Shown in pieces: positions 15,936 to 54,999 of a stretch of 64,000 nt of DNA. Origin of the DNA: Candidatus Kerfeldbacteria bacterium (GTDB lineage Bacteria; Patescibacteriota; Patescibacteriia; UBA9570; XYC2-FULL-38-9); NCBI GenBank assembly GCA_043813585.1, contig JBDRKW010000006.1, forward strand, positions 149,741-213,740, given 5' to 3'. Made by a program: the position numbers and the translations under genes. The notes beneath the pieces were generated by a model. The model saw only the letters and a program-made list of their open reading frames with translations, searched no databases and was not told the DNA's origin. Position 1 is the stretch's first letter; every line of letters begins with the position of its first letter.

Positions 15936-16500
15936 GCCAGAGGAATGAAGCTCCCCGGGCTCACGCCCGGGGTATCTTTATACCCATACAAACTTCGTTT
16001 GTCCTTTGTCCTCTTTACCTTGCTGCTCTATATATTTTTCGATAGTATTTCTGTTGACTCCGACGGTAGAGACAAAATAGCCATCTGACCATATTCCCAT
16101 CTTGTCGTTCTCGTACATATGGCTAAGGAAAGGAAACTGCGTTCTCATGGCCTTTGCACTATTGCTTTTAAGAGTACGTACGATATCAGAAACAGCGTAT
16201 TTTGGAGGAATGACTAGAAGGAGATGGATATGGTCTTCATCCGTATTCATTTCAATAAGTTCAATATCAGGTTGTGTGTTGAGTATATTTTTTATAGTGG
16301 CCATGAGATACGCTCCCATGCCTTGTTTGAGTATCTTTCTTCTATATTTGGTGACAAAGACAAGATGGTATTGTGTATAGTAAATACTGTGCGCTTGTTT
16401 GCGGTATGCGATTGGTTCACTCATACTGTGAACATACCACGCTGCGGTAAAGAGGCCAAAGGCACAGCAAGGAACCCCGGGCTCACGCCCGGGGTATTGA
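15936..16500 (-). mobile_element. IS200/IS605-family insertion sequence (tnpA only)
   Basis: The identical perfect palindrome CCCCGGGCtcacGCCCGGGG occurs at both ends (15953-15972 and 16475-16494), flanking a Y1/HuH transposase gene. Confidence 0.75.
15978..16424 (-). CDS. tnpA: IS200/IS605 family transposase TnpA (Y1 HuH)
   Basis: YHLVFVTKYRRKIL and HIHLLLVIPP (HuH) motifs in a roughly 148-aa protein. Real start MSEPIAY at 16424. Confidence 0.85.
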   Translation of the reverse strand: MSEPIAYRKQAHSIYYTQYHLVFVTKYRRKILKQGMGAYLMATIKNILNTQPDIELIEMNTDEDHIHLLLVIPPKYAVSDIVRTLKSNSAKAMRTQFPFLSHMYENDKMGIWSDGYFVSTVGVNRNTIEKYIEQQGKEDKGQTKFVWV

Positions 16501-16515
16501 CTCCGTACACAAAAA

Positions 16516-16545
16516 GAATCCCGCACTAAACGGGATTCTTTTTAT
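16516..16545. terminator. Hairpin and T-run (bidirectional terminator candidate)
   Basis: GAATCCCGcactaaaCGGGATTCttttt. Confidence 0.45.
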
Positions 16546-17877: not shown

Positions 17878-18585
17878 ATGGGAGAACCACAACCCGCCCG
17901 GCAGCAGCCGGCAGAAAGCTACGATCGAGAAACAAAACCGGGCAAACGTAAAATACCGCCTGCCAGGCTTGAAGTTATTGAAGGTGGAGATGAAAGTCAA
18001 CTGCTTGATGAGGCGGCGGCCGGATCAAGTGAAGCGTTCAACCAGTTATGGAAAATGTATGATGATGAACTCACTGGATTTCTCTATAACAAAATCCCTT
18101 CATACGTTGCCAACCGCCGGGAAAAAGCCGAAGAAATCAAACAAGAGGTGGCCGTAAAAGCATGGAACAATATTCATACGTTTAAGAAAGAAGCAACATT
18201 CAAAACATGGATATACCAAATCGCAAAAAATAAATTGATCGATGAATTTAGACGAAAAAAACGCAGAGTCAAAACACGTTCTATCGACGAAGAGTATGAC
18301 GACGGGGGAAAGAAAATTGATCCCGAGGCCACAGGCCTGTCAGCTGATCCGGAACTGGCCAGCATGATGGCCGAACAGGCAGATGTCGTGCGCGAAGCAA
18401 TCAAAGAGCTTCCGTCCGAGCAAGCTGAAGCAATACGCCTGTTCCATCTTCAAGACAAATCATATTCAGAAATCGCAGAGATCCAGGGCATTAGTGAAGG
18501 AACTGTCATGAGCCGTCTGTTCTATGCAAGAAAATCACTTAAAGAAAAGCTTAGCGAAATGGGTCAAGAATTGCGCAGCGCTTAA
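17878..18585 (+). CDS. RNA polymerase sigma-70 family (ECF-type) sigma factor
   Basis: Region 2 ([19 protein letters not shown]) and region 4 HTH ([28 protein letters not shown]). TTTAAT 7 nt upstream of the ATG suggests a leaderless transcript. Confidence 0.75.
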
Positions 18586-19835
18586 CCGTACAGCGGAAAT
18601 GCTTTTGTAAGCTCGGACACCAATGTCCGGGCTTTTTGTTTCACGTTATCGTCTTCTGGATTCTTGAGTAACTCGATAATCATATCTCCGATTTGAGTCA
18701 TCTGATTTTCCTTCATGCCACGCGTGGTCAACGCCGGAGTACCGAACCTGATACCAGATGGATCAGTTGGCGGCCGCTCGTCATCAGGAATGACATTTTT
18801 ATTCACTGTGATGCCGACCTCGTCCAATAATTCTTCCGCCTGCTTGCCAGTGAGACCCAATGATGTCACGTCAGTGAGCACAATATGATTTTCTGTACCG
18901 CCAAAGACAATCTTGAGCCCTCCGTTCAACAAAGATTCAAATAATGCAGCAGCATTCTTCACAATCTGTTGGGCGTAGTCTTTAAACTCCGGCTGTGCTG
19001 CCTCTTTAAGTGCAACAGCCAACGCTGCAATCACATTCTCATGCGGACCGCCCTGTAAACCCGGGAACACCGCCTTGTCGATCTGCTTTGCGAACTTCTC
19101 TTTACAAAGAATCATCGCACCGCGCGGTCCACGGAGTGATTTATGCGTGGTAGTTGTCACCACATCCATTATCGGCACCGGATTCTTCATCACACCGCCG
19201 GCAACAAGCCCCGCAATATGCGCCATGTCCATCATACTCACCGCTCCAACCTCTTCTGCGATCTCCTGGAGCTTTTCATAATCCAAATCACGAGAGTATG
19301 ACGAGTATCCGGCCAATAAAATCTTTGGCTTCACCTCCTGCGCCTGCTTGCGAATCGCTTCATAATCAAATGCACCGGTTTCCGGATCGCAGGTGTAGTG
19401 TTCAAAGTTATAAATACTTGCGGAAAATGTTACGGGGTGTCCGTGCGTCAGATGGCCGCCATACGAAAGCGCCATTCCTAGCACTGTGTCTCCAGGTTTG
19501 AGTAATGCCGCATACACAGCCAGGTTTGCTGGCGAACCAGACAACGGCTGCACGTTAACATGCTCCGCTGCAAACAATTCCTTCGCCCGGTCGATTGCCA
19601 TCTGCTCTAACGCATCAATAAATTCATTACCCCCGTAGTACCGCTTGCCTGGGTACCCTTCAGCGTACTTGTTCGTTGCAACCGATCCGATAGCTTCCAT
19701 CACCGCTTCAGATGCGAAGTTCTCCGATGCAATCATCTCTAATGTGTTCTGTTGCCGGTTTAATTCATTCGATAATGTCTCTGCAACTTCCGGATCGTTC
19801 TTTTTGATATTTGAGTAGTCAATCATGCTGTCCAT
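18582..19835 (-). CDS. glyA: Serine hydroxymethyltransferase
   Basis: Full-length SHMT with a PLP-lysine region ([13 protein letters not shown]). Confidence 0.95.
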
Positions 19836-19868
19836 ACTATACCACGCAGCCCCTTTTGCCTAGAACCA

Positions 19869-19898
19869 TTGACAAATACACCCTTTTCAGCCTATAAT
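19869..19898 (+). promoter_or_regulatory. Near-consensus sigma70 promoter (TTGACA-18-TATAAT)
   Basis: TTGACA at 19869-19874 and TATAAT at 19893-19898. It is about 100 nt upstream of the LOG-like gene, which has SD AGGGGAGG. Confidence 0.5.
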
Positions 19899-19997
19899 AC
19901 TTCGATTACCCGGGGGGAATTCCATGAAGGATTCTTCTCGTTTTGGTAATTGTACATACCACACCACAGCGCAAGCTGGTTTTAGGGGAGGCTACAG

Positions 19998-20762
19998 ATG
20001 GCAAGCGGATATTGGAAGACAGACCCACACGCCGTCATGCAGAGCGAGTGGCTGCAGCACGGCACCTGGTCCTTCAGCGACAAGGTGCGCCGGTACGCTC
20101 AGTGGATTCGTCCACAGGTCGGCCCGATGATCGGCATCTTCGGCTCGGCACGCGACCCGGAGAAGGCGCCGAACCTGCACGCCAGGTACGCCAATCGCGC
20201 GACGGAGATCGGTCGGCTGCTCGGAGAGCGCGGCGCGTCGCTGATCAGCGGCCACTGCCCCGGCCTGCCGGAGCTGACCGAGAACGGGTTCAAGGCGGCG
20301 CGCATTAGCGACCGCAAGCAGCCCGTCATCGGAGTGCGCATCGTCATCACCAAGGACGGCGTGATCTTCGAGGAGACGGACCGGACCAAGGTGGATGTCT
20401 ACATCGAGTGTGATGATTTCGGTCCCAGGATCGAGATAATGGAAGCGCTCGCCGATGGCGCCATCTTCTGCCCCGGCGGCATCGGGACGCGCCTCGAATT
20501 GCAGCTGTTCATCCAGAAACAGCAGCTCGGCAGCTACCTGGGCCGGAAGATCCCGTTGGTTCTGGTCGGCACCTCGCACTGGGCCAAGATCCTCGACGAC
20601 TTCTCCGCCCAGCAAGAGGACGAGACAATCGGCTCCCACGAATTCTGGGTGACGGTCACCGACCACCCGGAGGAGGCAGTCGAACTGGTCCTCGGCGAGA
20701 ACGGCAACAGGGACCGCGCCGAGCGAATCCTGGTCGAGACCAGCGGCGACCTGAGCATATAA
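19998..20762 (+). CDS. LOG/SLOG-family Rossmann-fold protein (TIGR00730-like)
   Basis: IGIFGSARD and FCPGGIGTRLELQLF (PGGxGTxxE) signatures. About 64% GC with a strong SD. It has N- and C-terminal extensions relative to minimal LOG proteins. Confidence 0.7.
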   Translation: MASGYWKTDPHAVMQSEWLQHGTWSFSDKVRRYAQWIRPQVGPMIGIFGSARDPEKAPNLHARYANRATEIGRLLGERGASLISGHCPGLPELTENGFKAARISDRKQPVIGVRIVITKDGVIFEETDRTKVDVYIECDDFGPRIEIMEALADGAIFCPGGIGTRLELQLFIQKQQLGSYLGRKIPLVLVGTSHWAKILDDFSAQQEDETIGSHEFWVTVTDHPEEAVELVLGENGNRDRAERILVETSGDLSI

Positions 20763-20765
20763 AAA

Positions 20766-20800
20766 AGGGACGGACGACCCTACAATATCGTCCATCTTTT
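20766..20800. terminator. Hairpin and T-run between the convergent LOG-like and Elp3 genes
   Basis: aaaaaaGGGACGgacgaccctacaatatCGTCCatcttttttt. Confidence 0.45.
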
Positions 20801-20821
20801 TTTACTCAAACCTCGCCGGTT

Positions 20822-22375
20822 CTAAATATCCTTTACCATATACTCGCCTTCCAGGCGGTACCCGCATTTATTCCTAAAATATTCGCGCACGCCGACGCCC
20901 GCAATGACCGCGATTTTTGTATACCCCGCGTGCCGCGCGATCTCTTCCGCATCTTCCATCAACTGCTGGCCCATGCCGACATGCTGCACCGAATGTTCGC
21001 CCGAATCAATCTTCGCCATCCGCCCGTAGGTGTGCACCTCGCGGATAAGCGCTGCATCCTGCAATTCGGGAATCCAGTGCTTTCCAATATTCTGCAAACG
21101 GAGCCGCGCAAACGCATACATAATCTCCTTATCCGGTGACTCATAGCTCAAAAAAACTTCGCGCCCGCCGGACGCGTCATACCCGCGCCGGACCAGCTCC
21201 AAATCCTCCAGCGCAACCGACACGTCGCCGGGTTCCCGGCACCGGATGCACCGGCACTGCACGCCCTGGCGCTTCATCATCTGCCGCAGATTCGTTTTCC
21301 GGTTCCCCGCGTAAATCGAACTGCTCGGGATGTCCCGCACCAGCCGTTCAATGCGCACCCACTCCGGTACGAGCTTTTTAATTTCCACCAATAAATACTC
21401 CAGTGACTCCTGCGCATACGGCGTATACGAACCATCTTTCCACCACTGATACAATACGGAGTTTCCAGTAACAACAGTCGGATAGATCTTAATATGGTCC
21501 GGCTGGAAATCCGGCGTGCAAAACGCGTCAACAATCGTCTTCAGGTCCTTCTCAATGGTCGCGCCCGGCAGCCCCTGCATATAATGGTGCGAAACCTTCA
21601 TGCCCGCTTCCTTCAGCAGCCGCGTCGCCCGAACCGCATCTTCATTCGTCTGCTCGCGGCGCACCAGCTGCAATACTTCCTCGTCAGTCGTCTGCACCCC
21701 AAGCTGCACCCGCGTGCACCCAAGCACACGCATCCGCCGTACCTCTTCTTCATCAATTAAATCCGGACGGGTTTCAAGCGTCAGCCCGATCACGCGGTGC
21801 TGCGCAGTTTCATTCAGCATCTTCGCTTCCTCGATATCCCGCGCCACGCAACTATTAAACGCATCATAACACCGCTTGATAAACCAGGTCTGGTATTCAT
21901 GCGGATACGCAGACCACGACCCGCCCAAAACAATCAGCTCACATTTATCCGTCACATGGCCGTTTGCGTCCAACGCCTTCAGCCGCGCCTCCACCTGGCT
22001 AAACGGATCAAACTGATGGCGCAACGCCCGCGCCGCACCCGGTTCGTTGGACAGGTACGATTTCGGCATTCCCTGCTCGGACGGGCAGTACACGCACTTG
22101 CCAGGGCAAGAATACGGCTCGGTCAGTACGGTAATCACCGCAACGCCGGACAAATTCCGCACGATCCGCTTGGAAAACAGCGTCCATATCGCGCCATCCT
22201 TCTCCAGCTCCCCCGCGTTTATCATTTCGCGGTATTTTGCTAGTATTGAAGAGTTGGGAGCCATGCTGGTTCCGTATTCCTTGGCCACCACCGCTTTTAC
22301 AGCCTTAAGCTGCTGCGGCGACGCAACGCCGCGCTTGATGGCCAACTCAATAATTTTTTTTAACGCATCAGACAT
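20822..22375 (-). CDS. elp3: Elp3-like radical-SAM / GNAT acetyltransferase (tRNA U34 carboxymethylation family)
   Basis: Radical-SAM cluster CPGKCVYCP, an Elp3-type central domain and a C-terminal GNAT region (QHVGMGQQLMEDAE..). Confidence 0.8.
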   Translation of the reverse strand: MSDALKKIIELAIKRGVASPQQLKAVKAVVAKEYGTSMAPNSSILAKYREMINAGELEKDGAIWTLFSKRIVRNLSGVAVITVLTEPYSCPGKCVYCPSEQGMPKSYLSNEPGAARALRHQFDPFSQVEARLKALDANGHVTDKCELIVLGGSWSAYPHEYQTWFIKRCYDAFNSCVARDIEEAKMLNETAQHRVIGLTLETRPDLIDEEEVRRMRVLGCTRVQLGVQTTDEEVLQLVRREQTNEDAVRATRLLKEAGMKVSHHYMQGLPGATIEKDLKTIVDAFCTPDFQPDHIKIYPTVVTGNSVLYQWWKDGSYTPYAQESLEYLLVEIKKLVPEWVRIERLVRDIPSSSIYAGNRKTNLRQMMKRQGVQCRCIRCREPGDVSVALEDLELVRRGYDASGGREVFLSYESPDKEIMYAFARLRLQNIGKHWIPELQDAALIREVHTYGRMAKIDSGEHSVQHVGMGQQLMEDAEEIARHAGYTKIAVIAGVGVREYFRNKCGYRLEGEYMVKDI

Positions 22376-22402
22376 ATGGATGGTAAAACCGCAGAACGCT
22401 TG

Positions 22403-23101
22403 ATGAGCCAGATAGAGGCTGATTACGACACGATATCAGACCACTTTGCGCAAACCCGGCTCAACCAGTGGTACGAGGTCGATTTCCTCATCGACCAATA
22501 TGTAAAGCCGGAAGAGCTGGTGCTGGACCTTGGCTGCGGTAATGGGAGGGTAGCTGATCTGGTCAATCAAATCAAGGCAAAATATGTCGGGCTCGACGTG
22601 TCGGACAAGCTCATCGCGATTGCACGTGAACAGCGGCCGGGCAATGACTTCCGCGTCGGCAACATGCTGCGCACCGGGTTCGAAGACCAAACCTTCGACC
22701 ACGTGCTGATGATCGCGAGCCTCCACCATATTCCGTCCGACGAACTTCGGCAGCAGGCACTGGAAGAAGCCAAGCGCATTACCAAGCGGCACGGATTCAT
22801 CATAATGACCAACTGGAACCTGCGGCAGATGCGCTTTGCAGTGCGCCGATGGAAGTTCAACCTGCAAACGGCGCTGCGGATGAACGAGCTGGACTGGAAC
22901 GACATGTTCATCCCGTGGTACGACCAAAAACAGCATCTCCTTGCATCGCGGTATTACCATGCATTTACGCCGGGCGAGCTGAAACGCCTGGCAAAGAAGA
23001 CCGGTCTAACTGTTATTGACCAATACTACGAAACAAACGGCATGCATGTGGCGCGCCGAAACGGCCAGAACATCGTCACGGTTCTTTCCCCGGAAAGTTG
23101 A
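22403..23101 (+). CDS. Class I SAM-dependent methyltransferase (Methyltransf_11-like)
   Basis: Motif I VLDLGCGNGR. The alternative start at 22376 shares CATATG with the divergent elp3 start. Confidence 0.65.
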   Translation: MSQIEADYDTISDHFAQTRLNQWYEVDFLIDQYVKPEELVLDLGCGNGRVADLVNQIKAKYVGLDVSDKLIAIAREQRPGNDFRVGNMLRTGFEDQTFDHVLMIASLHHIPSDELRQQALEEAKRITKRHGFIIMTNWNLRQMRFAVRRWKFNLQTALRMNELDWNDMFIPWYDQKQHLLASRYYHAFTPGELKRLAKKTGLTVIDQYYETNGMHVARRNGQNIVTVLSPES

Positions 23102-28324: not shown

Positions 28325-28361
28325 ATGTATTGCTTATTTACCGATTCTATTTTACCAAATT

Positions 28362-28410
28362 CCGGTATCAAAGTAAAAAAAAGCCCAGCCGGATGTTCCT
28401 CCATTCCAGA
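28362..28410 (-). terminator. Imperfect hairpin plus T8 run after the GC-rich gene pair
   Basis: The minus strand reads CCCATCTGG..(loop)..CCGGCTGGG followed by TTTTTTTT. Confidence 0.4.
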
Positions 28411-28414
28411 TGGG

Positions 28415-29467
28415 TCAGTCGATGATGACGGGCGGTGTCTCGTCCGGGTCTCCGGTCCAGCGCTGCAGGTCTTCGTCAGAGAACGACGGCGCGCGTGCCG
28501 TCAAAAACCGCCAGCCGGAATCCCATGTGGTGGCTGCCCTGCCGACCGTAAGCATGCGCTTCTTCCCGTCCTGGGTAAGGTTCACTGCGTGCCTCCGGTT
28601 GCCGCCCAGCTTGGCGAAGATCGTGATCGGCCGGTCATGCGTCAGGTCATGGAGCGACAGGCCAAACGAGATCAGCTCTTCCAGGTCGGCCATGCGGAGC
28701 TTCCGGTCGGAAATCTCCGCCTGGATCTCGCCCGAGGTCGCAGGCCGGTCCAGCTGAACAATTACGAGCTCGCGCACGACGCGGCCATCGCCGTCGCCGT
28801 GGGACTCCAGGCGGCTCGTGTTGAGTTTGGGATCGACATAGACGAACTGCCCGCGTGCAATCAGCTCTCTGGGCGTCAGGTTGTAGTTGACAACCAGCGT
28901 GTAGTCATCATCATCCCAGGTCTCCTGGCTGTCCGTGTCGCGCTCCGTGAGCACGATCTCCGGCTGCGAAGGCGCGATGACTACATCATGGCGCACACGC
29001 TTCTTCGGGCGCCACCGCGGAACCTCTGGCGGCACGTCCGGTCCTGCCTCCACCTTCTGATCGAGCGACACCTCCATCTCCGTCTCGTGGAGTTGCCACT
29101 TATCGCGGTTGCGGATGATCATGCGTGCAAGCTTGCGCATGAGCCGCTCGTTATGGACAAACGCGAAATAATCCTCGTCTGTCCCGCCCACTCGGGCGAA
29201 CTCGTCCACGAACGCGTACCCCGCGCCGATAAACTCCTTCACGTGCAGCCCGACGGCCAAAGCGCCGCGGTTGAAGAAGGGGTCCGTGATCCGGCGATGG
29301 GACAGGATGACCTGGTTGATCACCAGGCCGAGCGCCTCGCTGCCGGTCCCGAGAATGCTCCGATGCAGTACCCGCACCGAGTGGCCGAGCTTCGCGTCGT
29401 CGATCTTCTCGATCGCGCGCAACACCTCTGTTGCGATGTAAAGGAACTCTTTCGGGTTGGATGACAC
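28415..29467 (-). CDS. Hypothetical protein (350 aa), paralogue A of a GC-rich two-gene module
   Basis: GTG start preceded by GGAGG. About 62% GC. Its N-terminal roughly 120 aa are paralogous to the upstream gene (GGTDEDYFAFVHNERLMRKLA vs GGTEEDILRMFFDYRLIERIA). Basic linker RWRPKKRVRHD. Confidence 0.5.
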   Translation of the reverse strand: MSSNPKEFLYIATEVLRAIEKIDDAKLGHSVRVLHRSILGTGSEALGLVINQVILSHRRITDPFFNRGALAVGLHVKEFIGAGYAFVDEFARVGGTDEDYFAFVHNERLMRKLARMIIRNRDKWQLHETEMEVSLDQKVEAGPDVPPEVPRWRPKKRVRHDVVIAPSQPEIVLTERDTDSQETWDDDDYTLVVNYNLTPRELIARGQFVYVDPKLNTSRLESHGDGDGRVVRELVIVQLDRPATSGEIQAEISDRKLRMADLEELISFGLSLHDLTHDRPITIFAKLGGNRRHAVNLTQDGKKRMLTVGRAATTWDSGWRFLTARAPSFSDEDLQRWTGDPDETPPVIID

Positions 29468-29530: not shown

Positions 29531-29571
29531 CGTAAAAAAATCCGGCGAACGCAGCGATGCTGTGTTGCCGG

Positions 29572-30528
29572 TCAATTCACATCCTCTGCGCACTCCGCCG
29601 GAGAGCGCGCCAGAACCTGCACGCCGTTCTCGATCTCACGGGCGATGTTCCAGTACTTGATGGTCCACTCGCGCCCGTCGTCATCCGGAACGAAGAACGG
29701 CACGTACGCGTCGCCGTGCGACCCTTCCCACCGCTCGCAGGGAACCAGCACCTCGCCGGTTGCGTGCGTGCGGTAGCGCCGCATGAAGAACAACGCGTCT
29801 CCCAGCGTCGGACGCGCAAGCCCCTGACGCCGCAGGGCGGCGAGCATCGCCTCGAAGTTCAGGCTGCGGTCGAACTCCACCAGCGCCATCTGGTACGGCG
29901 CATCACCGCGGCAGGTGTTGCCGACGTTCAGCGGGAACTGCTGCTCCGACACCATGGAGCCGGGTTCCATCCGCACGCCCGCCTCGTGCAGCGCGGCAGC
30001 GAACGTCTTCTGCTCCGAAGGCCGGAACAGGTCCGGAAACACGGTGGAACGCAACCGCGTGGCCGGAGCAAGCACCTTCAGCCGCGGCTTGCGGGGCCTG
30101 GACTTCTGCCTGCCGCATGCTCCGCCTTCGGCAAACGGACTTTGCGGCCCGGCATTACCGTGCTCCATCTCGTCGGCGAAGTTCACCACCGTGGTGGCGA
30201 TCCGCTCGATCAGCCGGTAGTCGAAGAACATGCGCAGAATGTCTTCCTCCGTGCCGCCGGCAGAACGAATCTCACTCAGCAGCACTTTGGACGCCGTCAT
30301 CATGGTACGGACGGCGAAACCAATCTCGGCATCGCTCATCCTGTCCAATGTTCTGAACAGATCCCCGTACATCGCATACCGGCGCGGCCGTACGACCGAC
30401 ATCATCATCTTCTCCGCGATCAGCGCCCTAATGGCTACCCCGATGTCCTCGTCCCTGAAGGACTTGAACTGGTCGATCACGGAGCTCAACAGCGAAAGAA
30501 TCCCGCGATACACTGCAGTCATGTTCAA
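29572..30528 (-). CDS. Hypothetical protein (318 aa), paralogue B of a GC-rich two-gene module
   Basis: SD GGGAGGA 7 nt upstream of the ATG. About 62% GC. It shares the N-terminal domain and a basic linker (RQKSRPRKPRLK) with paralogue A. Confidence 0.5.
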   Translation of the reverse strand: MNMTAVYRGILSLLSSVIDQFKSFRDEDIGVAIRALIAEKMMMSVVRPRRYAMYGDLFRTLDRMSDAEIGFAVRTMMTASKVLLSEIRSAGGTEEDILRMFFDYRLIERIATTVVNFADEMEHGNAGPQSPFAEGGACGRQKSRPRKPRLKVLAPATRLRSTVFPDLFRPSEQKTFAAALHEAGVRMEPGSMVSEQQFPLNVGNTCRGDAPYQMALVEFDRSLNFEAMLAALRRQGLARPTLGDALFFMRRYRTHATGEVLVPCERWEGSHGDAYVPFFVPDDDGREWTIKYWNIAREIENGVQVLARSPAECAEDVN

Positions 30529-30635
30529 ATCCTCCCGGAATTCGAGTTTTCAAGTGCGCATACCATAATAAAACAACGGCCTCCTGTCAACGCTGCATGT
30601 TCGATTTTGCCTGCGGCTATGGTACACTTCAAAAC

Positions 30636-31424
30636 ATGAACAAGGAGCTTCAAACCGCCATGAAGGCTGCTGATGCAGCGTCGCGCATCGCGTTGAAGTA
30701 TTGGCGCAAAAAGAACCATGTACGCACGAAAACCAACTGGCGCGATCCGGTCACGATCGCTGATGTAAAAGCGGATAGAGCAATTCGCAAAATGATCAAG
30801 AACAAATTCCCTGACCACGGCATCGTTTCAGAAGAGCTGGATGATGTAGAAGCAACAAAACAATCAGAATACGTATGGGTCATTGACCCCATTGATGGCA
30901 CGATGAATTACGCCATGGGCCTGCCGACCTTCAGCATTGCAATTGGCTTGTTGAAGAACAGCAAGCCCGTACTCGGTGTGATCGACCACCCTGCGCTTAG
31001 CGAACGCTACTGGGCAGAAGCAGGAAATAATACGCTGATGAAACGCGGCAATAAAAAACCGGTTCGCTGCACTGTTTCAAAAACAACATCACTGAAAGAA
31101 AGCAAATTCTCGTTCGGCTTCAGCTACACTGATGCCTCCCGCAAACGCTTCCTTAAATCATTTCCAGGCCTTGTAATGAAGACCGCAGCCTCGCGTATCC
31201 ACTACTGCGCCGCCTACGACTGCACAAATGTCGCCCGCGGCGGGCTCGACTTCTACATCAGCATCAACCTGCAACTCTGGGACTTTGTTGCTGCCTGGCC
31301 GATCGTCGAAGGATCCGGCGGTGAAATCGTAAACCTCGAAGGTAAACCGATTACCATCGAAGACCGCAGCATTGTCGCGACAAATAAAAAAGTCACACAC
31401 TCCGTCTTGAAAATGCTGAAGTAA
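30636..31424 (+). CDS. Inositol monophosphatase family protein (SuhB/IMPase-like)
   Basis: WVIDPIDGTMNY and GLPTFSIAIGL motifs. Confidence 0.8.
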   Translation: MNKELQTAMKAADAASRIALKYWRKKNHVRTKTNWRDPVTIADVKADRAIRKMIKNKFPDHGIVSEELDDVEATKQSEYVWVIDPIDGTMNYAMGLPTFSIAIGLLKNSKPVLGVIDHPALSERYWAEAGNNTLMKRGNKKPVRCTVSKTTSLKESKFSFGFSYTDASRKRFLKSFPGLVMKTAASRIHYCAAYDCTNVARGGLDFYISINLQLWDFVAAWPIVEGSGGEIVNLEGKPITIEDRSIVATNKKVTHSVLKMLK

Positions 31425-43652: not shown

Positions 43653-44408
43653 TTAGAAGTCGAGCACGACGTAGAGGCGGCCCACAATGTCGCGGCCTGT
43701 ACAGGCAGCGGAAGAACCGTCGTTGCTGCAGCGGACCTGCATCGCGCCGACCAAGGTGAAGTGGTCGCCGAACGGCACGATGACGTGCGGTCCGGCGCCG
43801 ATCGACCCACCGCTGCCGTGCCAGGCCTTGCCTGCCTCGAACTCCATGCCGATTTTCATCAACACCTGTTTGCCGCGGCGCACCGGGACGTCTACTTCCT
43901 GAAAGGTGTAGGCCACCTGCGTCGTCGCCATCCCTTCGCCCCAGAAGTGGAGCCACGGGATCGCGGTTAGCGAGTACCGCAGGTCAAACACCGGCGCGAA
44001 CGGCGTGTCCGAGTCGGGGGAAGCGAGGCCGCCGCCCATGAACTCGATCCAACCATCGGCACCTGCGAACCTGGGACCAATGAACGCGACCGCTTCGGGA
44101 GCCCCATCCAGCAGGTTCGGCTCCACGAACCAGAACGCGACACCGGGGTCAACCGCACGACTGATGCCGGTGTCTTCCGCGGCGTGGTGCATCTTGGTGC
44201 CGTGCACCACCAAACGCGCCTCAGGGCTAAAACCGAATTCCTGCGCATGCGCCTTGAGCCCCATGGAGAAGATCAATGCGAGGGTCAACACCGCCAGTGT
44301 CGGGAAGTACCGCTGGATGTAGTTGTCGTCGCGGTCCTTCATGCTGTAAACGGTTGAGATCATCGCAATGACAATCGCTGCGAGCGTGAAAAAGTGGATG
44401 ATGAACAT
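43653..44408 (-). CDS. GC-rich hypothetical secreted protein with a β-barrel-like C-terminal signature (…YVVLDF)
   Basis: About 60% GC. SD GGAGG 7 nt upstream. It has a signal-like segment ending AHA-QE, alternating hydrophobic β-pattern and a terminal Phe. Confidence 0.35.
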   Translation of the reverse strand: MFIIHFFTLAAIVIAMISTVYSMKDRDDNYIQRYFPTLAVLTLALIFSMGLKAHAQEFGFSPEARLVVHGTKMHHAAEDTGISRAVDPGVAFWFVEPNLLDGAPEAVAFIGPRFAGADGWIEFMGGGLASPDSDTPFAPVFDLRYSLTAIPWLHFWGEGMATTQVAYTFQEVDVPVRRGKQVLMKIGMEFEAGKAWHGSGGSIGAGPHVIVPFGDHFTLVGAMQVRCSNDGSSAACTGRDIVGRLYVVLDF

Positions 44409-49897: not shown

Positions 49898-49922
49898 ATT
49901 GAAAAACGACATCGGAAGCTAT

Positions 49923-49950
49923 ACAGCGCCTATCAACGGCGCTTTTCTTG
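49923..49950 (+). terminator. Rho-independent terminator after pcrA
   Basis: AGCGCCtatcaacGGCGCTTTTCTT. Confidence 0.55.
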
Positions 49951-50080
49951 ACTTCTCTGCCTGATGCGGTAAGAAGGGTAGGTAAACCGGGCAGGAATAT
50001 GGCGGGTTTCGGGCTAATAGAGGCCCGGGGCTCAAACGATCATAGTGATCCGATTCCTGTTTGGTGCACGAGGAGAAATC

Positions 50081-51403
50081 ATGCCTAGTGGCGAAGAGGA
50101 CGCTCTGTCCAGACTTGTGACTGCTGCCGTCGACCCGTGGAAACGGACCGACAAGCACCACCTGAACCAGGGGTTGCTGGCGCTTGAAGGCAAGCACACC
50201 GACCTGCTGCCGAATGAACAGTTCAGGTGCCGGATTCCGGTGTCCGAAGGCGAGATCAAGACTGCGGTGTCCGAAGACGGCGCGGTCACAGTTGGTGGTT
50301 TGGACGATTCTGGCATGCACCAGCTGTTCGTGGCTGCGCCCGACAGCACTCGGTTCACGCCGGTGCTGAAACAGCCGGTCGGCGAGATCCGTGCGGTCTG
50401 CTTCCCAAGCGGCAGCAACCGACCGGCGTGCGTTGCCGGCGACGACTTCGACTCCTGGAGGGTCATCTGGGACGACTGGGAAGCGGTCTTCTCCGTGCCG
50501 GTCCGGACGTACCTGAACCCGTTCGCAACGCAGCAATGCTGGCTCACCTGCTGGATGGAAGACGGCCAAAAAAACGCATTCATCATGACGTACGGCATGT
50601 CCGAGATGCTGACGAAGAAACCTGATGGAACTGTCCGAATCACACACTACCCGAAAGGGGGCGCACGAGTCATCGGCGTATTCGACGGCAGTGCAGTTGT
50701 CATGCCGGACCGACGGCTGAACAAACCCATCACATACGGGGATTTCACACTCCCCAAGACGAGCGACTTCAACCGCCACCACGTCCAGGCGCATCCGGAG
50801 GGCGGCATCATCATGGTGGGCTTCGACCTCGACAGCACCACATCACCGTCCAACTTCATCGCCACCTCATTCAACAGGTCGATCAGGTACGTGGAGCAAG
50901 GAGGATTGTTCCTGGTCAACGGCGAAGTGTACAGCAACCATCTGACGGGGAATGATCCGCACAACCGGCAGAACACGGTGGTCTCGCTCGATGGCAGCTG
51001 GCAGACGAAGTCGTCAATCGCCGGAATCGCTGTACAGGGGTTCAGATACGGCGACGGTTCGCTTGCGGTCACCACGGGCCGGCTAGAGTCGCAGGTGTTG
51101 TGTCTCTTCGATCGGGACGGAAACAGTACGTTCGAGTACCGGATCGGAAGCGGGCACTTCACGCCCGACGGCCGCCTTCTCTTCCCGGGTGGATGGTACT
51201 ACCCGCAGACCTTCGCCGGCATGGAAGAGTCGATGCGGCGCACTCTCACCATAATGCCCATTCGCCTCGGGCAACGCTCACTCCACCAGATGACGCTCAT
51301 CAACGAAAACGAGCTTATGGGCATTCATCCGGTGGGCAACGGCCAGCTTGCGGTTCACCGCTGGCTGCCGATGGACCCGGACGTCGACCTGACGGTCGAG
51401 TAA
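50081..51403 (+). CDS. GC-rich hypothetical protein (440 aa), β-rich
   Basis: About 62% GC. SD GAGGAG 5 nt upstream of the ATG. No recognisable motifs. Confidence 0.5.
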   Translation: MPSGEEDALSRLVTAAVDPWKRTDKHHLNQGLLALEGKHTDLLPNEQFRCRIPVSEGEIKTAVSEDGAVTVGGLDDSGMHQLFVAAPDSTRFTPVLKQPVGEIRAVCFPSGSNRPACVAGDDFDSWRVIWDDWEAVFSVPVRTYLNPFATQQCWLTCWMEDGQKNAFIMTYGMSEMLTKKPDGTVRITHYPKGGARVIGVFDGSAVVMPDRRLNKPITYGDFTLPKTSDFNRHHVQAHPEGGIIMVGFDLDSTTSPSNFIATSFNRSIRYVEQGGLFLVNGEVYSNHLTGNDPHNRQNTVVSLDGSWQTKSSIAGIAVQGFRYGDGSLAVTTGRLESQVLCLFDRDGNSTFEYRIGSGHFTPDGRLLFPGGWYYPQTFAGMEESMRRTLTIMPIRLGQRSLHQMTLINENELMGIHPVGNGQLAVHRWLPMDPDVDLTVE

Positions 51404-52041: not shown

Positions 52042-52728
52042 TCATCTGCGCAGCCTTCTCTTGATGTCATCCAGTTGGATGACATGAGCTGACGCCGATG
52101 ATGCCGGCATCGTTGTTTTTCCCGTGGTTCCTCCCATGGCGTAGACGAGCGCATGCTCGTCCTTCTCGTCCTCCTTGTCGTCGTCGCCGTCCGGGTTCAC
52201 GTCCGAAACCGCGTAGTAGGTGTCGCGGTCGATCTGGACCATGAAGGTTCCTGTCTCGTCGTAGACGAGGGTGCGGTCGGGGGTTCGCGGCGATGCGATG
52301 GTGCGGTCAGAGGTCTGCATGAGGATGCGCCGCTGGGTGCGCCACCTGTTGTAGTTGTCCAGCGCCGCCTGGAACCCGGGCGCGGAGCGCGTCGACGGGA
52401 ACCTTGGGGCGTCCTCGGTCCAGTTGACGTCGGCGTAGAACGGGATCAGCGTCTCGCTGTAGAGCAGGACATCGGCGCTGCCGTTGCCGTTGTCCCTGAC
52501 CTGCAGACGAAATCCCGACTTGGTGCCCAGCGTGAACTGGACGTCGTTGTCCAGTATGAACTTCCCGGCCGGGAAGCTCCTGTACGAGAACGTGATGCGA
52601 ACCCATGCGTAGAGCAGCCGGATCTGGAGCAGTTCCAGCTTCTCGATCATGGGTAGTGGCCGCACCCGCCGCAAAGCAGGTGTGTTCGTTGCCCGCACTC
52701 GGGTCAACGGCTTTTTCCAGCGGTCCAT
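52042..52728 (-). CDS. GC-rich hypothetical protein (about 228 aa)
   Basis: About 62% GC. The likely start is the second Met (MDRWKK), which has GGAGGT 5 nt upstream. An acidic DGDDDKEDEKDE stretch and an RRLRR tail. Confidence 0.45.
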   Translation of the reverse strand: MDRWKKPLTRVRATNTPALRRVRPLPMIEKLELLQIRLLYAWVRITFSYRSFPAGKFILDNDVQFTLGTKSGFRLQVRDNGNGSADVLLYSETLIPFYADVNWTEDAPRFPSTRSAPGFQAALDNYNRWRTQRRILMQTSDRTIASPRTPDRTLVYDETGTFMVQIDRDTYYAVSDVNPDGDDDKEDEKDEHALVYAMGGTTGKTTMPASSASAHVIQLDDIKRRLRR

Positions 52729-52947
52729 TCTGACCTCCATAGCGTTCCCTGACGGAACACTTTGGTTGGGATTGTCGATGTCCGTTGCCCAAGGCGGATT
52801 ATAAGAGTATATCCGCCCGCCCCCTCCCGGGGGCCACGTGCTGTGTGGGACTAGTCACCCTACAACATAAATTCGCCATTTGTCAAGCCATAACTGTTAA
52901 TACCGAAAATGCAGGTCACGCCCGTATATCTGCCCATATTCCAGGCA

Positions 52948-52976
52948 TTGACAAAACGCGTTGACTGACCTATAAT
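52948..52976 (+). promoter_or_regulatory. Perfect-consensus sigma70 promoter TTGACA-17-TATAAT
   Basis: TTGACA at 52948-52953, a 17-nt spacer and TATAAT at 52971-52976. It is about 45 nt upstream of the 659-aa acidic protein gene. Confidence 0.6.
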
Positions 52977-53019: not shown

Positions 53020-54999
53020 ATGCCAGAACCCAAAGGAATCCCAATTGGTCCCGCAAAGGCCGAAGCACGCCCAACGCCAGTACCGGTCAAACCGGGTGAA
53101 AGAGAAGTGCCTCCGATTACCCGCGAGGACCTGAAAGTTGTCCGGGGAGATGGCGGCGGGGAGATGGCGGCAGAACCGCAGGGCGATGACGCCTATGATC
53201 CCGCAAAAATGGAGCGGTATTATCCGGAAGATCTGTTGAATGTACTTGGCGCGAAGATCGAAGCGGCAACCGGCCAAAAAGTAAATCTGAAATACCAGGA
53301 ATTTACCCTGCAGGAAGCGGGCGGCAAACCGGGTGAAGCAAAAGCGGTTCGCAAAAACGGGGAACAGTATGCAAGCGAACTGATGCAGGCCATGACAAAA
53401 TCCGATAACAAACAGCTGGACGACTTCTACCTGTCGCGCTTTGAACCGGCGACCGACCAGGCGCTGGCGGCCAAACAGCCCCTCACTGAACAGCAGCTGG
53501 CGGCCGCAGTCGTGGCAGAAGCCGCGCGCATGGTTCATGACAACCCAAAAATACGCGAGGCGGTACTGGCAGCGCAGTTTGGTTTTACTTCCATTAATGA
53601 AATTTCAAAAGAATCACTGAATAAGAAGATAAACGATCTCTACGACGCGGAACGCGCAAAAGCCGGCGCTATGACCCCGGAGGTTGCGGCAAAGCTGCAA
53701 TCCTTTATGGATTGGCAGGAACGGCTGGAAGGCATGTTGCTTGATGCGCATGAAAAAGCGGAAAAACTTCGCGGCGAGGCGGCAGAATTGGTTGAAGAGA
53801 TAAAACTGCCGGAGCTGGATATTGAACCAATGGCAATGCCGGAGATTCCCAAAGCCGAATTAAAAGCGGAAGACCTGGAAGCAATAACGGAAACGCCGGC
53901 CGAAGCGCGCGGACGCATTGAACAGCTCCGCATAGCGCTGGACGCAGAGCTGGGCGCAACCCGCTTTGAAGAACGCGGCGTCTGGAGCCGTTTGAAAAAT
54001 ATTGCCACTGAACTGAAAGGCGCGCGCGCCAAGCAGGGCAAGCTGCGCGACCAGCTGAAACAGCTGGACCGGTTTAGCGCTGAAATGAACGATAACAACT
54101 ACAAAGAATACATGGCAAAGATGGATGCGATGCAATCCATGATGGCTGAACAGTTTGAAATCAAGACGCTCCCGGAACTGCGCCCCATAGAAGCAGCAAC
54201 AGAAGCGCCTGCTGCAGAACTCCCGCCGGAACAACAGCCGGCCACAGCAGAAGAAGAAAAAGAGCGCATGATGATCTCTGCGGAAATTGCGGATATTATC
54301 GGCATAGACCAGCCGGAGCAGGCGGCGGCGGAAGAGGAATTCTTCTCCACCGGAGCGCGCGAAACCAAGCCGGCGGCTGAAACAGATATGCCGATTGACG
54401 CGAAGGCAGTGGCAAACCTCCAGCAGCTGGAATACGGCGACCTTGAAATGATGCTCAAGCAGGTGGAGGGCCAGATGGGCGCTGAAAAAGGCGATGCGCT
54501 CAAAGCGCTGCAGATGCGCGAATCGGCGATTACCGAAGCAATGCGTACGCATCCGAGCAATGAAGGCGCGCTGAAGGCAGAAGCGGCTGCGGAAGAGGAT
54601 GAAGACATCCCGCCGACCGAACAGGCGCTTGACCTCGGGCAGCAGCCCGTGGAGCGCGTCCCTATGACCAAGCTGAAAGCGGAATACAAAGAATTTGATA
54701 CCAACGATGTGACCATTGAAGAACAGAAGATCCTGCAGGAATTTGATTTGGATACGCAATTCCTCACCGAAAAATCGATGGACGACCCGGAACGAACAAC
54801 AAAGATGCTGGTTGCGATGAAAACGCGCATCAATGAAAAAGCTGCAGAAATGAAAACGGAACTAAAAGCATCCGGCGTGACCGACCAAAAAGAAATTGAC
54901 GAGCAGGTCGGCGCATACACAGAACGGCTGTATGAGATGTATGACCGCATGTACGTGCTGGAACAACTGCCGAGACCGGAACGCATGAAAGACAAATAG
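53020..54999 (+). CDS. Large (659 aa) acidic, E/A/K/Q-rich, predicted coiled-coil protein of unknown function
   Basis: Long uninterrupted ORF driven by a consensus promoter and ending at a strong terminator. No TM or enzymatic motifs. Confidence 0.55.
   Translation: MPEPKGIPIGPAKAEARPTPVPVKPGEREVPPITREDLKVVRGDGGGEMAAEPQGDDAYDPAKMERYYPEDLLNVLGAKIEAATGQKVNLKYQEFTLQEAGGKPGEAKAVRKNGEQYASELMQAMTKSDNKQLDDFYLSRFEPATDQALAAKQPLTEQQLAAAVVAEAARMVHDNPKIREAVLAAQFGFTSINEISKESLNKKINDLYDAERAKAGAMTPEVAAKLQSFMDWQERLEGMLLDAHEKAEKLRGEAAELVEEIKLPELDIEPMAMPEIPKAELKAEDLEAITETPAEARGRIEQLRIALDAELGATRFEERGVWSRLKNIATELKGARAKQGKLRDQLKQLDRFSAEMNDNNYKEYMAKMDAMQSMMAEQFEIKTLPELRPIEAATEAPAAELPPEQQPATAEEEKERMMISAEIADIIGIDQPEQAAAEEEFFSTGARETKPAAETDMPIDAKAVANLQQLEYGDLEMMLKQVEGQMGAEKGDALKALQMRESAITEAMRTHPSNEGALKAEAAAEEDEDIPPTEQALDLGQQPVERVPMTKLKAEYKEFDTNDVTIEEQKILQEFDLDTQFLTEKSMDDPERTTKMLVAMKTRINEKAAEMKTELKASGVTDQKEIDEQVGAYTERLYEMYDRMYVLEQLPRPERMKDK

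Follow-up and report, generated by a model that had tools for sequence, protein, structure and literature searches.

The closest described relatives of the protein considered here belong to the LOG family and its wider superfamily. Type-II LOG proteins are defined by an extra N-terminal alpha-1 helix, which builds the core of their hexamer, and an Asp immediately before the catalytic Glu (D177 of CgLOGII) is a synapomorphy of the type (PMC5379747). In CgLOG and CgLOGII, a Lys, an Asp or Glu, and a Phe or Met bind adenine and the prenyl group (PMC4979012; PMC5379747), and the roles of Arg155/Lys156 of CgLOGII and of the LOG motifs have been described (PMC5379747; motif roles also in PMC4979012). 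NmYgdH (PDB 9US2) is a nucleosidase that prefers uridine monophosphate (UMP), and its specificity switch Q97 corresponds to E106 in SgGouE, a hydrolase of cytidine monophosphate (CMP) (PMC12500856); these two enzymes show that short type-II-like LOGs can be pyrimidine nucleoside monophosphate (NMP) nucleosidases. PpnN (YgdH) of E. coli (6GFL) is a (p)ppGpp-regulated NMP nucleosidase of about 450 aa with three domains, and the SLOG sensors, such as ThsA of the Thoeris antiphage system and the LDcluster4 group, share the superfamily fold. The gene described here is located on the forward strand at 19998..20762 of a 64,000-nucleotide stretch (the window) of contig JBDRKW010000006.1 from a Candidatus Kerfeldbacteria metagenome-assembled genome (MAG), and its open reading frame (ORF) encodes 254 aa. 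The NCBI record of an identical protein carries the name ‘LOG family protein’ and comes from a Candidatus Kerfeldbacteria MAG, on a 219-kb contig. With moderate confidence, the protein is assigned to a divergent branch of the type-II LOGs that is catalytically competent, probably hexameric, and active as an exchanged enzyme of nucleotide salvage or catabolism.

The coding sequence (CDS; 19998..20762, +) was assigned to a divergent type-II-like LOG-family phosphoribohydrolase on the basis of Pfam, a structural model, Foldseek, and the NCBI name. A Pfam comparison, which a preliminary description of this DNA had proposed for telling LOG from SLOG proteins, gave PF03641 at 47.8 bits (cut-off 27), thereby passing the threshold of the LOG family, and PF18306 (SLOG cluster 4, LDcluster4) at 34 bits (cut-off 26.3). 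Because ordinary TIGR00730 LOG proteins carry a PF18306 match as well, according to precomputed results, the second match is non-discriminating. The nearest PDB structures by sequence were the type-II LOGs 9US2 (NmYgdH), 5ZI9, 1WEK, and 5WQ3, followed by PpnN cores and then by type-I LOGs; the alignments to 9US2 and 5ZI9 begin at residues 28-39 and reach residue 238. An AlphaFold2 (AF2) model was built on a 20-sequence alignment and had a predicted local distance difference test score (pLDDT) of 92.8. Foldseek gave the same ranking as the sequence search (9US2, 5ZI9, 5WQ3, 1WEK; probability 1.0), and PDB ranks 1-39 were all LOG, PpnN, or LOG-like proteins at probability 1.0, which indicates a LOG Rossmann-like fold; the first other match, at rank 40, was a molybdenum-cofactor-binding protein. 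The Foldseek alignments to type-II LOG structures span 209-237 columns.

The terminal extensions of roughly 45 aa, which had been described as atypical on both sides, were not confirmed in that form. In the AF2 model the 43 residues ahead of beta-1 (strand 44-48) form one long helix (10-40), and as modelled the N-terminal extension is the alpha-1 helix that is normal for type-II LOGs. Beyond the core, the C-terminus adds one helix (237-249), about 20 aa and not 45, and this region carries an NGN motif in which N235 and N237 are invariant in the seven closest members of the clade. The type-II LOGs CgLOGII (Cg1261, 5WQ3), ScLOGII (5ZI9), and TtLOGII (TT1465, 1WEK) are among the best sequence and structure matches, and share with the protein the Rossmann-like fold, the N-terminal helix before beta-1, an ‘FGSAR’ first loop, the PGGxGTxxE motif, and the Arg/Glu pair. 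They differ from it in that identity is 21-27%, and that the protein has Leu for Asp, Ile for Lys, GHCPG for GGGPG, and an insert of five residues. NmYgdH is the top PDB match by both sequence and structure (27% identity), but its pocket Lys and Asp are not kept here. The core of PpnN aligns with residues 68-225 and its chemistry is the same as that predicted for the protein, whereas its flanking regulatory domains are absent from the 254-aa protein.

The catalytic Arg144 is found in FGPRIE (codon 20427..20429, +), where it aligns with the RK of 5ZI9 and 9US2 and is followed by Ile145 in place of the canonical Lys. The phosphate-binding motif and the catalytic Glu167 are contained in PGGIGTRLE (residues 159-167; 20472..20498, +). 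R144 and E167 align with the catalytic pair of 5ZI9 and 9US2 and are invariant over 20 aligned proteins, comprising the clade and canonical LOGs, across which the PGGxGT motif is also largely kept (P159 nearly invariant, T164 sometimes Ser). The canonical GGGPG loop is replaced by G85-H86-C87-P88-G89 (20250..20264, +), which belongs to the clade signature G(G/H)CPG; the clade loop reads G(G/H)CPGxP against canonical GGGPGxM, and Cys87 is invariant in a 14-member clade alignment, whereas GGGPG or GGGEG is found in canonical LOGs. Where these have a Lys next to the catalytic Arg, the clade has a hydrophobic residue (Ile145), and the Asp or Glu that precedes the catalytic Glu has given way to Leu166 here and to Leu, Thr, Phe, or Gly elsewhere in the clade, so that the synapomorphic Asp of type II (D177 of CgLOGII) is lacking. 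In the alignments to 5ZI9 and 9US2 the prenyl-site Phe/His corresponds to Gly142 and the Glu to Leu170, Phe141 alone being kept. The Lys, Asp, and GGG changes recur in clade alignments. The clade also has an insert of five residues with nearly invariant Arg102 and Gln108, an Arg (Arg114) in place of Asn, and a longer beta3-beta4 loop. These alignments suggest that the phosphoribose-binding and catalytic machinery has been kept and that base recognition has been rebuilt.

With the adenine- and prenyl-binding positions occupied by other residues, a cytokinin nucleotide or adenosine monophosphate is an unlikely substrate. Database relatives with known structures are named cytokinin riboside 5'-monophosphate phosphoribohydrolases, and the protein has the PGGxGTxxE motif and catalytic pair that a classical enzyme of this kind would need. 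It is nevertheless very unlikely to be one, as the Lys, Asp/Glu, Phe/His, and Glu positions hold Ile, Leu, Gly, and Leu, the score against the cytokinin-LOG equivalog NF058542 was 25.8 bits where 300 are required, and type-II relatives with a preference for UMP or CMP are now known. By homology, the protein would probably convert an NMP-like substrate to the free base and ribose-5-phosphate. The position of Q97 in NmYgdH and E106 in SgGouE aligns with Glu126 here, an equivalence that is tentative given the indel contained in the loop; a non-adenine NMP, plausibly a pyrimidine nucleotide (CMP or UMP) or one with another base, is the candidate substrate.

A HMMER search of 1.84 billion representatives returned 4 proteins at E<=1e-30, 16 at <=1e-10, and 239 at <=1e-3. 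Joint Genome Institute (JGI) metagenomes, which were searched for further alleles, yielded two weak partial matches only, and a scan of viral contigs for phage carriage yielded no relative. The clade is a distinct and rare LOG variant restricted to the candidate phyla radiation (CPR), in a gene that was already annotated as LOG family.

The slot of the gene is occupied by a LOG relative in at least nine related Patescibacteria loci (designated L below). The order glyA-LOG-elp3-methyltransferase-DUF8173-PGM was found in L001/L002, L004, L009, L028, L031/L032, and L034, often with folD and an extracytoplasmic function sigma factor upstream, and the clade members so placed have identities of 27-81% with the window protein. 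In L029 the LOG gene is located between phosphoribosyl pyrophosphate (PRPP) synthase-folD-glyA and a pyr operon, with a cytidine-deaminase-like ORF nearby, and in L008 it follows folD. An HD/YfbR-like 5'-nucleotidase adjoins it in L009 and L034. The neighbourhood is one of housekeeping and nucleotide metabolism, not a defence island. Of the two findings that the preliminary description had named as speaking against its reading, one was obtained, as synteny is conserved in related genomes; the other, a grouping with housekeeping LOGs, was not, as the protein does not fall with the YgdH/PpnN or cytokinin-LOG equivalogs.

A family of phosphoribosyltransferase-like ORFs (316-336 aa, 56-60% mutual identity) adjoins the LOG gene in four loci of otherwise different context (L035:2319-3329, +; L008:8228-9214, +; L029:5622-6617, -; L033:674-1624, -). 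The family carries a PRPP-binding-like motif (IIFGDVVATGVSL) and had no sequence match in Pfam, NCBIfam, or the PDB, and no copy was found in the window; it may represent an uncharacterised phosphoribosyltransferase partner of the LOG enzyme. The MAG of L009 (CAYFNF010000001.1) is labelled ‘uncultured Gammaproteobacteria’. It has the order folD-sigma-glyA-LOG-elp3-methyltransferase-DUF8173-PGM and a serine hydroxymethyltransferase (SHMT) 71% identical to that of the window, and its taxonomic label is probably wrong.

In the window the gene is flanked by glyA, which encodes SHMT (18582..19835, -; divergent, upstream), and by elp3 (20822..22375, -; convergent, downstream), and from this geometry it is monocistronic. 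Its sigma-70-type promoter (19869..19898, +) consists of a -35 TTGACA at 19869-19874, an 18-nt spacer, and a -10 TATAAT at 19893-19898, which is a 12/12 match to consensus. Perfect sites of this kind occurred twice in the 64-kb window and in none of 100 shuffles, and the boxes of the LOG promoter are also kept in L001/L002, L004, and L005. The second perfect promoter of the window (TTGACA-N17-TATAAT; 52948..52976, +) is located about 45 nt 5' of a 659-aa ORF (53020..54999). A strong Shine-Dalgarno sequence, GGGGAGG (19985..19991, +), was read from the sequence 6 nt before the ATG of the 254-aa frame, which is why this start was favoured over the 241-aa start used by NCBI (P0001); an equivalent purine-rich box is aligned in relatives.

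Downstream, the gene ends in an intrinsic terminator (20762..20803, both strands) with a core stem at 20772-20777/20788-20793, a preceding A-tract, and a T-run at 20797-20803. The hairpin and T-run fold at -14.8 kcal/mol (z = -4.33), and because the terminator scan also calls the minus strand, the terminator is taken to be bidirectional and shared with the convergent elp3. The preliminary picture of a stand-alone LOG-fold gene, monocistronic and with a consensus promoter and a terminator of its own, was therefore upheld by the PF03641 match, the geometry, and these signals, with the amendment that the terminator is shared; the strength of expression is a matter that we infer from the signals alone.

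The leader of about 100 nt begins, near the predicted mRNA start, with a 5'-proximal hairpin (19905..19950, +) predicted by folding. The fold of the leader (19905-20000) has -28 kcal/mol and z = -2.05, and L002, L005, L004, and L007 have a hairpin of different sequence at the equivalent position, so that position is conserved and sequence is not. The hairpin is followed by UUUUGG in the window genome only, and the terminator scan flags it as terminator-like. Attenuation was considered and rejected, as the U-tract is not conserved in relatives; the hairpin is probably an mRNA-stabilising 5' stem-loop. An Rfam scan of 19700-20900 for a riboswitch or other known RNA in the leader gave E-values of chance level only.

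The gene had been called anomalous in guanine-plus-cytosine (GC) content, and this was confirmed. Its GC is 0.639 and its GC at third codon positions (GC3) 0.867, compared with 0.53 and 0.62 on average for 51 long ORFs of the window, a set slightly contaminated by a few shadow frames; its GC3 is the highest of the 51 (z ~2.4). The excess is limited to the CDS, leader and terminator having 0.40-0.53. It is seen in 10/12 clade genes (GC 0.59-0.67, GC3 0.64-0.91), whose hosts have a GC of 0.43-0.58 and whose adjoining genes have a GC3 of roughly 0.3-0.7. The excess belongs to the gene family and not to the window genome. Four-fold sites of the LOG gene are near saturation between lineages, yet are about 85-90% G/C.

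As most relatives in the same slot have a GC excess too, the anomaly is not the mark of a recent foreign insertion. A recently acquired, foreign GC-rich cargo gene with no integrated role in the host would account for the highest GC3 of the window, and the closest source-named relative outside the clade is an actinobacterial TIGR00730 protein (P0155). The chance of such an origin is nonetheless rated as very small: the slot, promoter, and leader architecture recur in related genomes, the excess is common to those ten clade genes although their four-fold sites are mutually saturated, it stops exactly at the CDS boundaries, and no donor was present among the 1.84 billion representatives. An old transfer followed by amelioration was rejected as a sufficient cause, as GC3 stays high while four-fold sites are near-saturated between lineages. 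High-expression codon bias was rejected as well: GC3 is unremarkable in the chaperone genes of L008 (DnaK, GrpE, DnaJ) and in SHMT at every locus. Frequent recombination at a locus is hypothesised to raise its GC through GC-biased gene conversion, and either this process or a GC-rich allele pool is possibly the cause of the persistent GC-richness.

A full-length open frame of 267 aa, codon-aligned with the LOG gene, is present on the opposite strand (19992..20795, -), and is open because the window LOG gene has no TTA, CTA, or TCA codons. Were it a genuine gene, read in the direction of elp3 and glyA, selection against stop codons in it would explain the GC-richness. In 6/10 clade genes, two of which have a GC3 of only 0.64-0.68, no stop interrupts the antisense frame along the entire CDS, and CTA and TCA together are depleted 4-fold more than in adjoining genes (odds ratio 0.16 vs 0.62). 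Almost all of the depletion, however, is in CTA and TTA, which is the usual Leu bias of GC-rich codon usage (CTA is 2/214 CTN codons in the pooled clade), and TCA (7%) is no rarer in the same pool than ACA or GTA. Moreover, the first positions of the antisense codons, which are the third positions of the sense codons, are near saturation between relatives, from which it follows that the antisense protein is not conserved, and the frame lacks a good ribosome-binding site and has its ATG inside the terminator stem. Dual coding is accordingly considered extremely improbable; the antisense frame was judged a by-product of Leu codon bias in a GC-rich gene and rejected as an overlapping gene.

Further GC-rich frames of the window were recorded. 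The frames at 28325..29464 (+) and 29557..30639 (+) have a GC1 (GC at first codon positions) of ~0.78 and Arg/Leu/His-rich, nonsense-like translations, and are probably shadow frames of the minus-strand genes 28415..29467 and 29572..30528. Other ORFs with high GC3 (0.77-0.83) and no Pfam match are located at 43653..44408 (-), 52042..52740 (-), and 50045..51403 (+), the last of which overlaps 49919..50794 (-); they are either further GC-rich accessory genes or, for 50045..51403, a shadow frame.

Divergence of the LOG gene is out of step with that of its neighbours. Across seven loci the SHMTs are 64-79% identical and the LOG proteins 81% to 32%, and the two identities are uncorrelated (Spearman 0.20); between L009 and L031, for example, SHMT identity is 77% and LOG identity 34%. 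The closely related pair L002 and L005 was compared at the nucleotide level. Identity is 87-94% in the upstream intergenic region, including the promoter, 46-75% over leader, CDS, and terminator (CDS 65%; protein 59%), and 82-97% at the 3' end of elp3. This sharply bounded divergence, which greatly exceeds that of the near-neutral flanks, is best accounted for if recombination in the conserved flanks replaced the transcription unit as a whole. One of the two alleles is nearest to that of the window (81%) and the other to that of L004 (73%), and both co-occur in samples SRR17165147 and SRR17165148. Replacement of this kind fits with published work in which the gene transfers detected for Patescibacteria were mostly intra-phylum (PMC12455944).

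The preliminary description had also suggested a SLOG-type sensor in an antiphage system such as Thoeris, and had proposed a look for TIR, SIR2, or effector partners elsewhere on the contig. The protein could be a component of a conflict system, either as such a sensor or as a single-gene antiphage or anti-host enzyme, its hypervariability being the outcome of an arms race; PF18306 is above its cut-off, alleles appear to have been replaced, with a sharp island of divergence, LOG divergence is out of step with SHMT, the composition is atypical, and variable small ORFs stand beside the LOG gene in L004, L029, and L031, with a HepT/MNT pair near it in L028. PADLOC, however, gave no match for the LOG protein, and its results for 10 neighbours were methyltransferase matches only, to one gene whose position is also conserved in L004. 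None of the adjacent genes encodes a TIR, SIR2, or effector protein, the flanks being glyA, folD, and elp3 in conserved housekeeping order, and no effector is fused to the protein. Ordinary LOGs match PF18306, and the scan of viral contigs found no clade member. Within the clade, catalytic and pocket positions do not vary, so the variable positions are not those that determine specificity. SLOG sensors (Thoeris ThsA, LDcluster4) share the superfamily fold, but the present protein stands alone, without SIR2, TIR, transmembrane effector, or thsB-like partner, and retains the catalytic apparatus of an enzyme, Arg and Glu included. The sensor role proposed earlier is not supported, and a conflict component of either kind is judged rather improbable.

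A related possibility is that the locus is a fixed-slot, hypervariable cassette in which divergent, persistently GC-rich alleles are swapped by recombination under frequency-dependent selection in conflict; the enzyme may, for instance, escape inhibitors or degrade modified nucleotides that are specific to phages or come from the host. This is thought unlikely, and if true it would be an uncatalogued kind of single-gene, nucleotide-targeting immunity or host-exploitation factor.

Several observations on the variability of the locus are reported separately. Extra small GC-rich ORFs stand beside the LOG gene at L004:10871-11773 (60 and 223 aa, GC3 0.80-0.88) and L029:6742-7622 (93 and 140 aa, GC 0.59-0.61), from which it appears that the GC-rich segment in the LOG slot can carry variable cargo. 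The 223-aa ORF of L004 has a short MazE-like match, and the C-terminus of the L004 LOG protein has a tandemly repeated SGSRIIRAVR tail. At L028:11228-12063 a low-GC HepT/MNT (nucleotidyltransferase) toxin-antitoxin pair is inserted between the methyltransferase and DUF8173, which indicates that the conserved block tolerates insertions. In the window, an IS200-like Y1 transposase (PF01797, 111 bits, GC 0.42; 15978..16526, -) is located some 3.5 kb from the LOG gene, with the YchF/cupin genes on one side and folD on the other. The bacterial Elp3 homologue of the window (TIGR01211, 529 bits) and a class-I S-adenosylmethionine-dependent methyltransferase are encoded as a divergent pair (20822..23101), which is kept in all related loci and may act as a module of tRNA U34 modification in Patescibacteria.

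The assignment to an exchanged, type-II-like nucleotide enzyme has to be weighed against the following points. The protein missed the cut-off of TIGR00730 (48.6 vs 96.35 bits) and failed both the PpnN equivalog NF038390 (31 bits vs 450) and the cytokinin-LOG equivalog mentioned above (25.8 of 300 bits). The pyrimidine substrate is suggested by a single loop alignment in an indel-rich region together with neighbours present in some relatives only, and the adjacency of glyA and folD may reflect shared descent of the gene order and no functional link. Exchange by recombination is argued from one closely related pair, L002 and L005. Two clade genes depart from the GC excess, that of L034 being near its flanks and that of L035 below them, and no high-GC donor pool was found among the representatives, in a relative search run with a 7-sequence clade alignment as query, in the JGI metagenomes, or on viral contigs.

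With these points in mind, we read the LOG gene as resident in a Patescibacteria lineage related to Kerfeldbacteria, where it is transcribed separately from a slot between glyA/folD and elp3, and its enzyme would most likely serve nucleotide salvage or catabolism in a symbiont with a reduced genome. Its transcription unit would be exchanged between related genomes through homologous recombination in the conserved flanks. Such exchange would explain why LOG divergence is out of step with the neighbours, and possibly also the persistent GC-richness.

If the protein is a plain NMP nucleosidase that is inherited with occasional exchange, the finding is an ordinary one. Automatic annotation routinely names LOG proteins ‘cytokinin’ enzymes or ‘lysine decarboxylases’, and this clade, which appears to keep the chemistry but to have rebuilt the base pocket, offers a clean candidate for a new specificity in nucleotide salvage, the metabolism on which CPR bacteria depend to survive on their hosts. 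Gene-specific GC-richness that persists at saturated synonymous sites and the apparent replacement of a whole unit between near-identical backgrounds are both unusual for a small cytoplasmic enzyme, and together they make the locus a tractable case in which to study, in uncultivated bacteria, hidden selection or a composition driven by recombination (GC-biased conversion).

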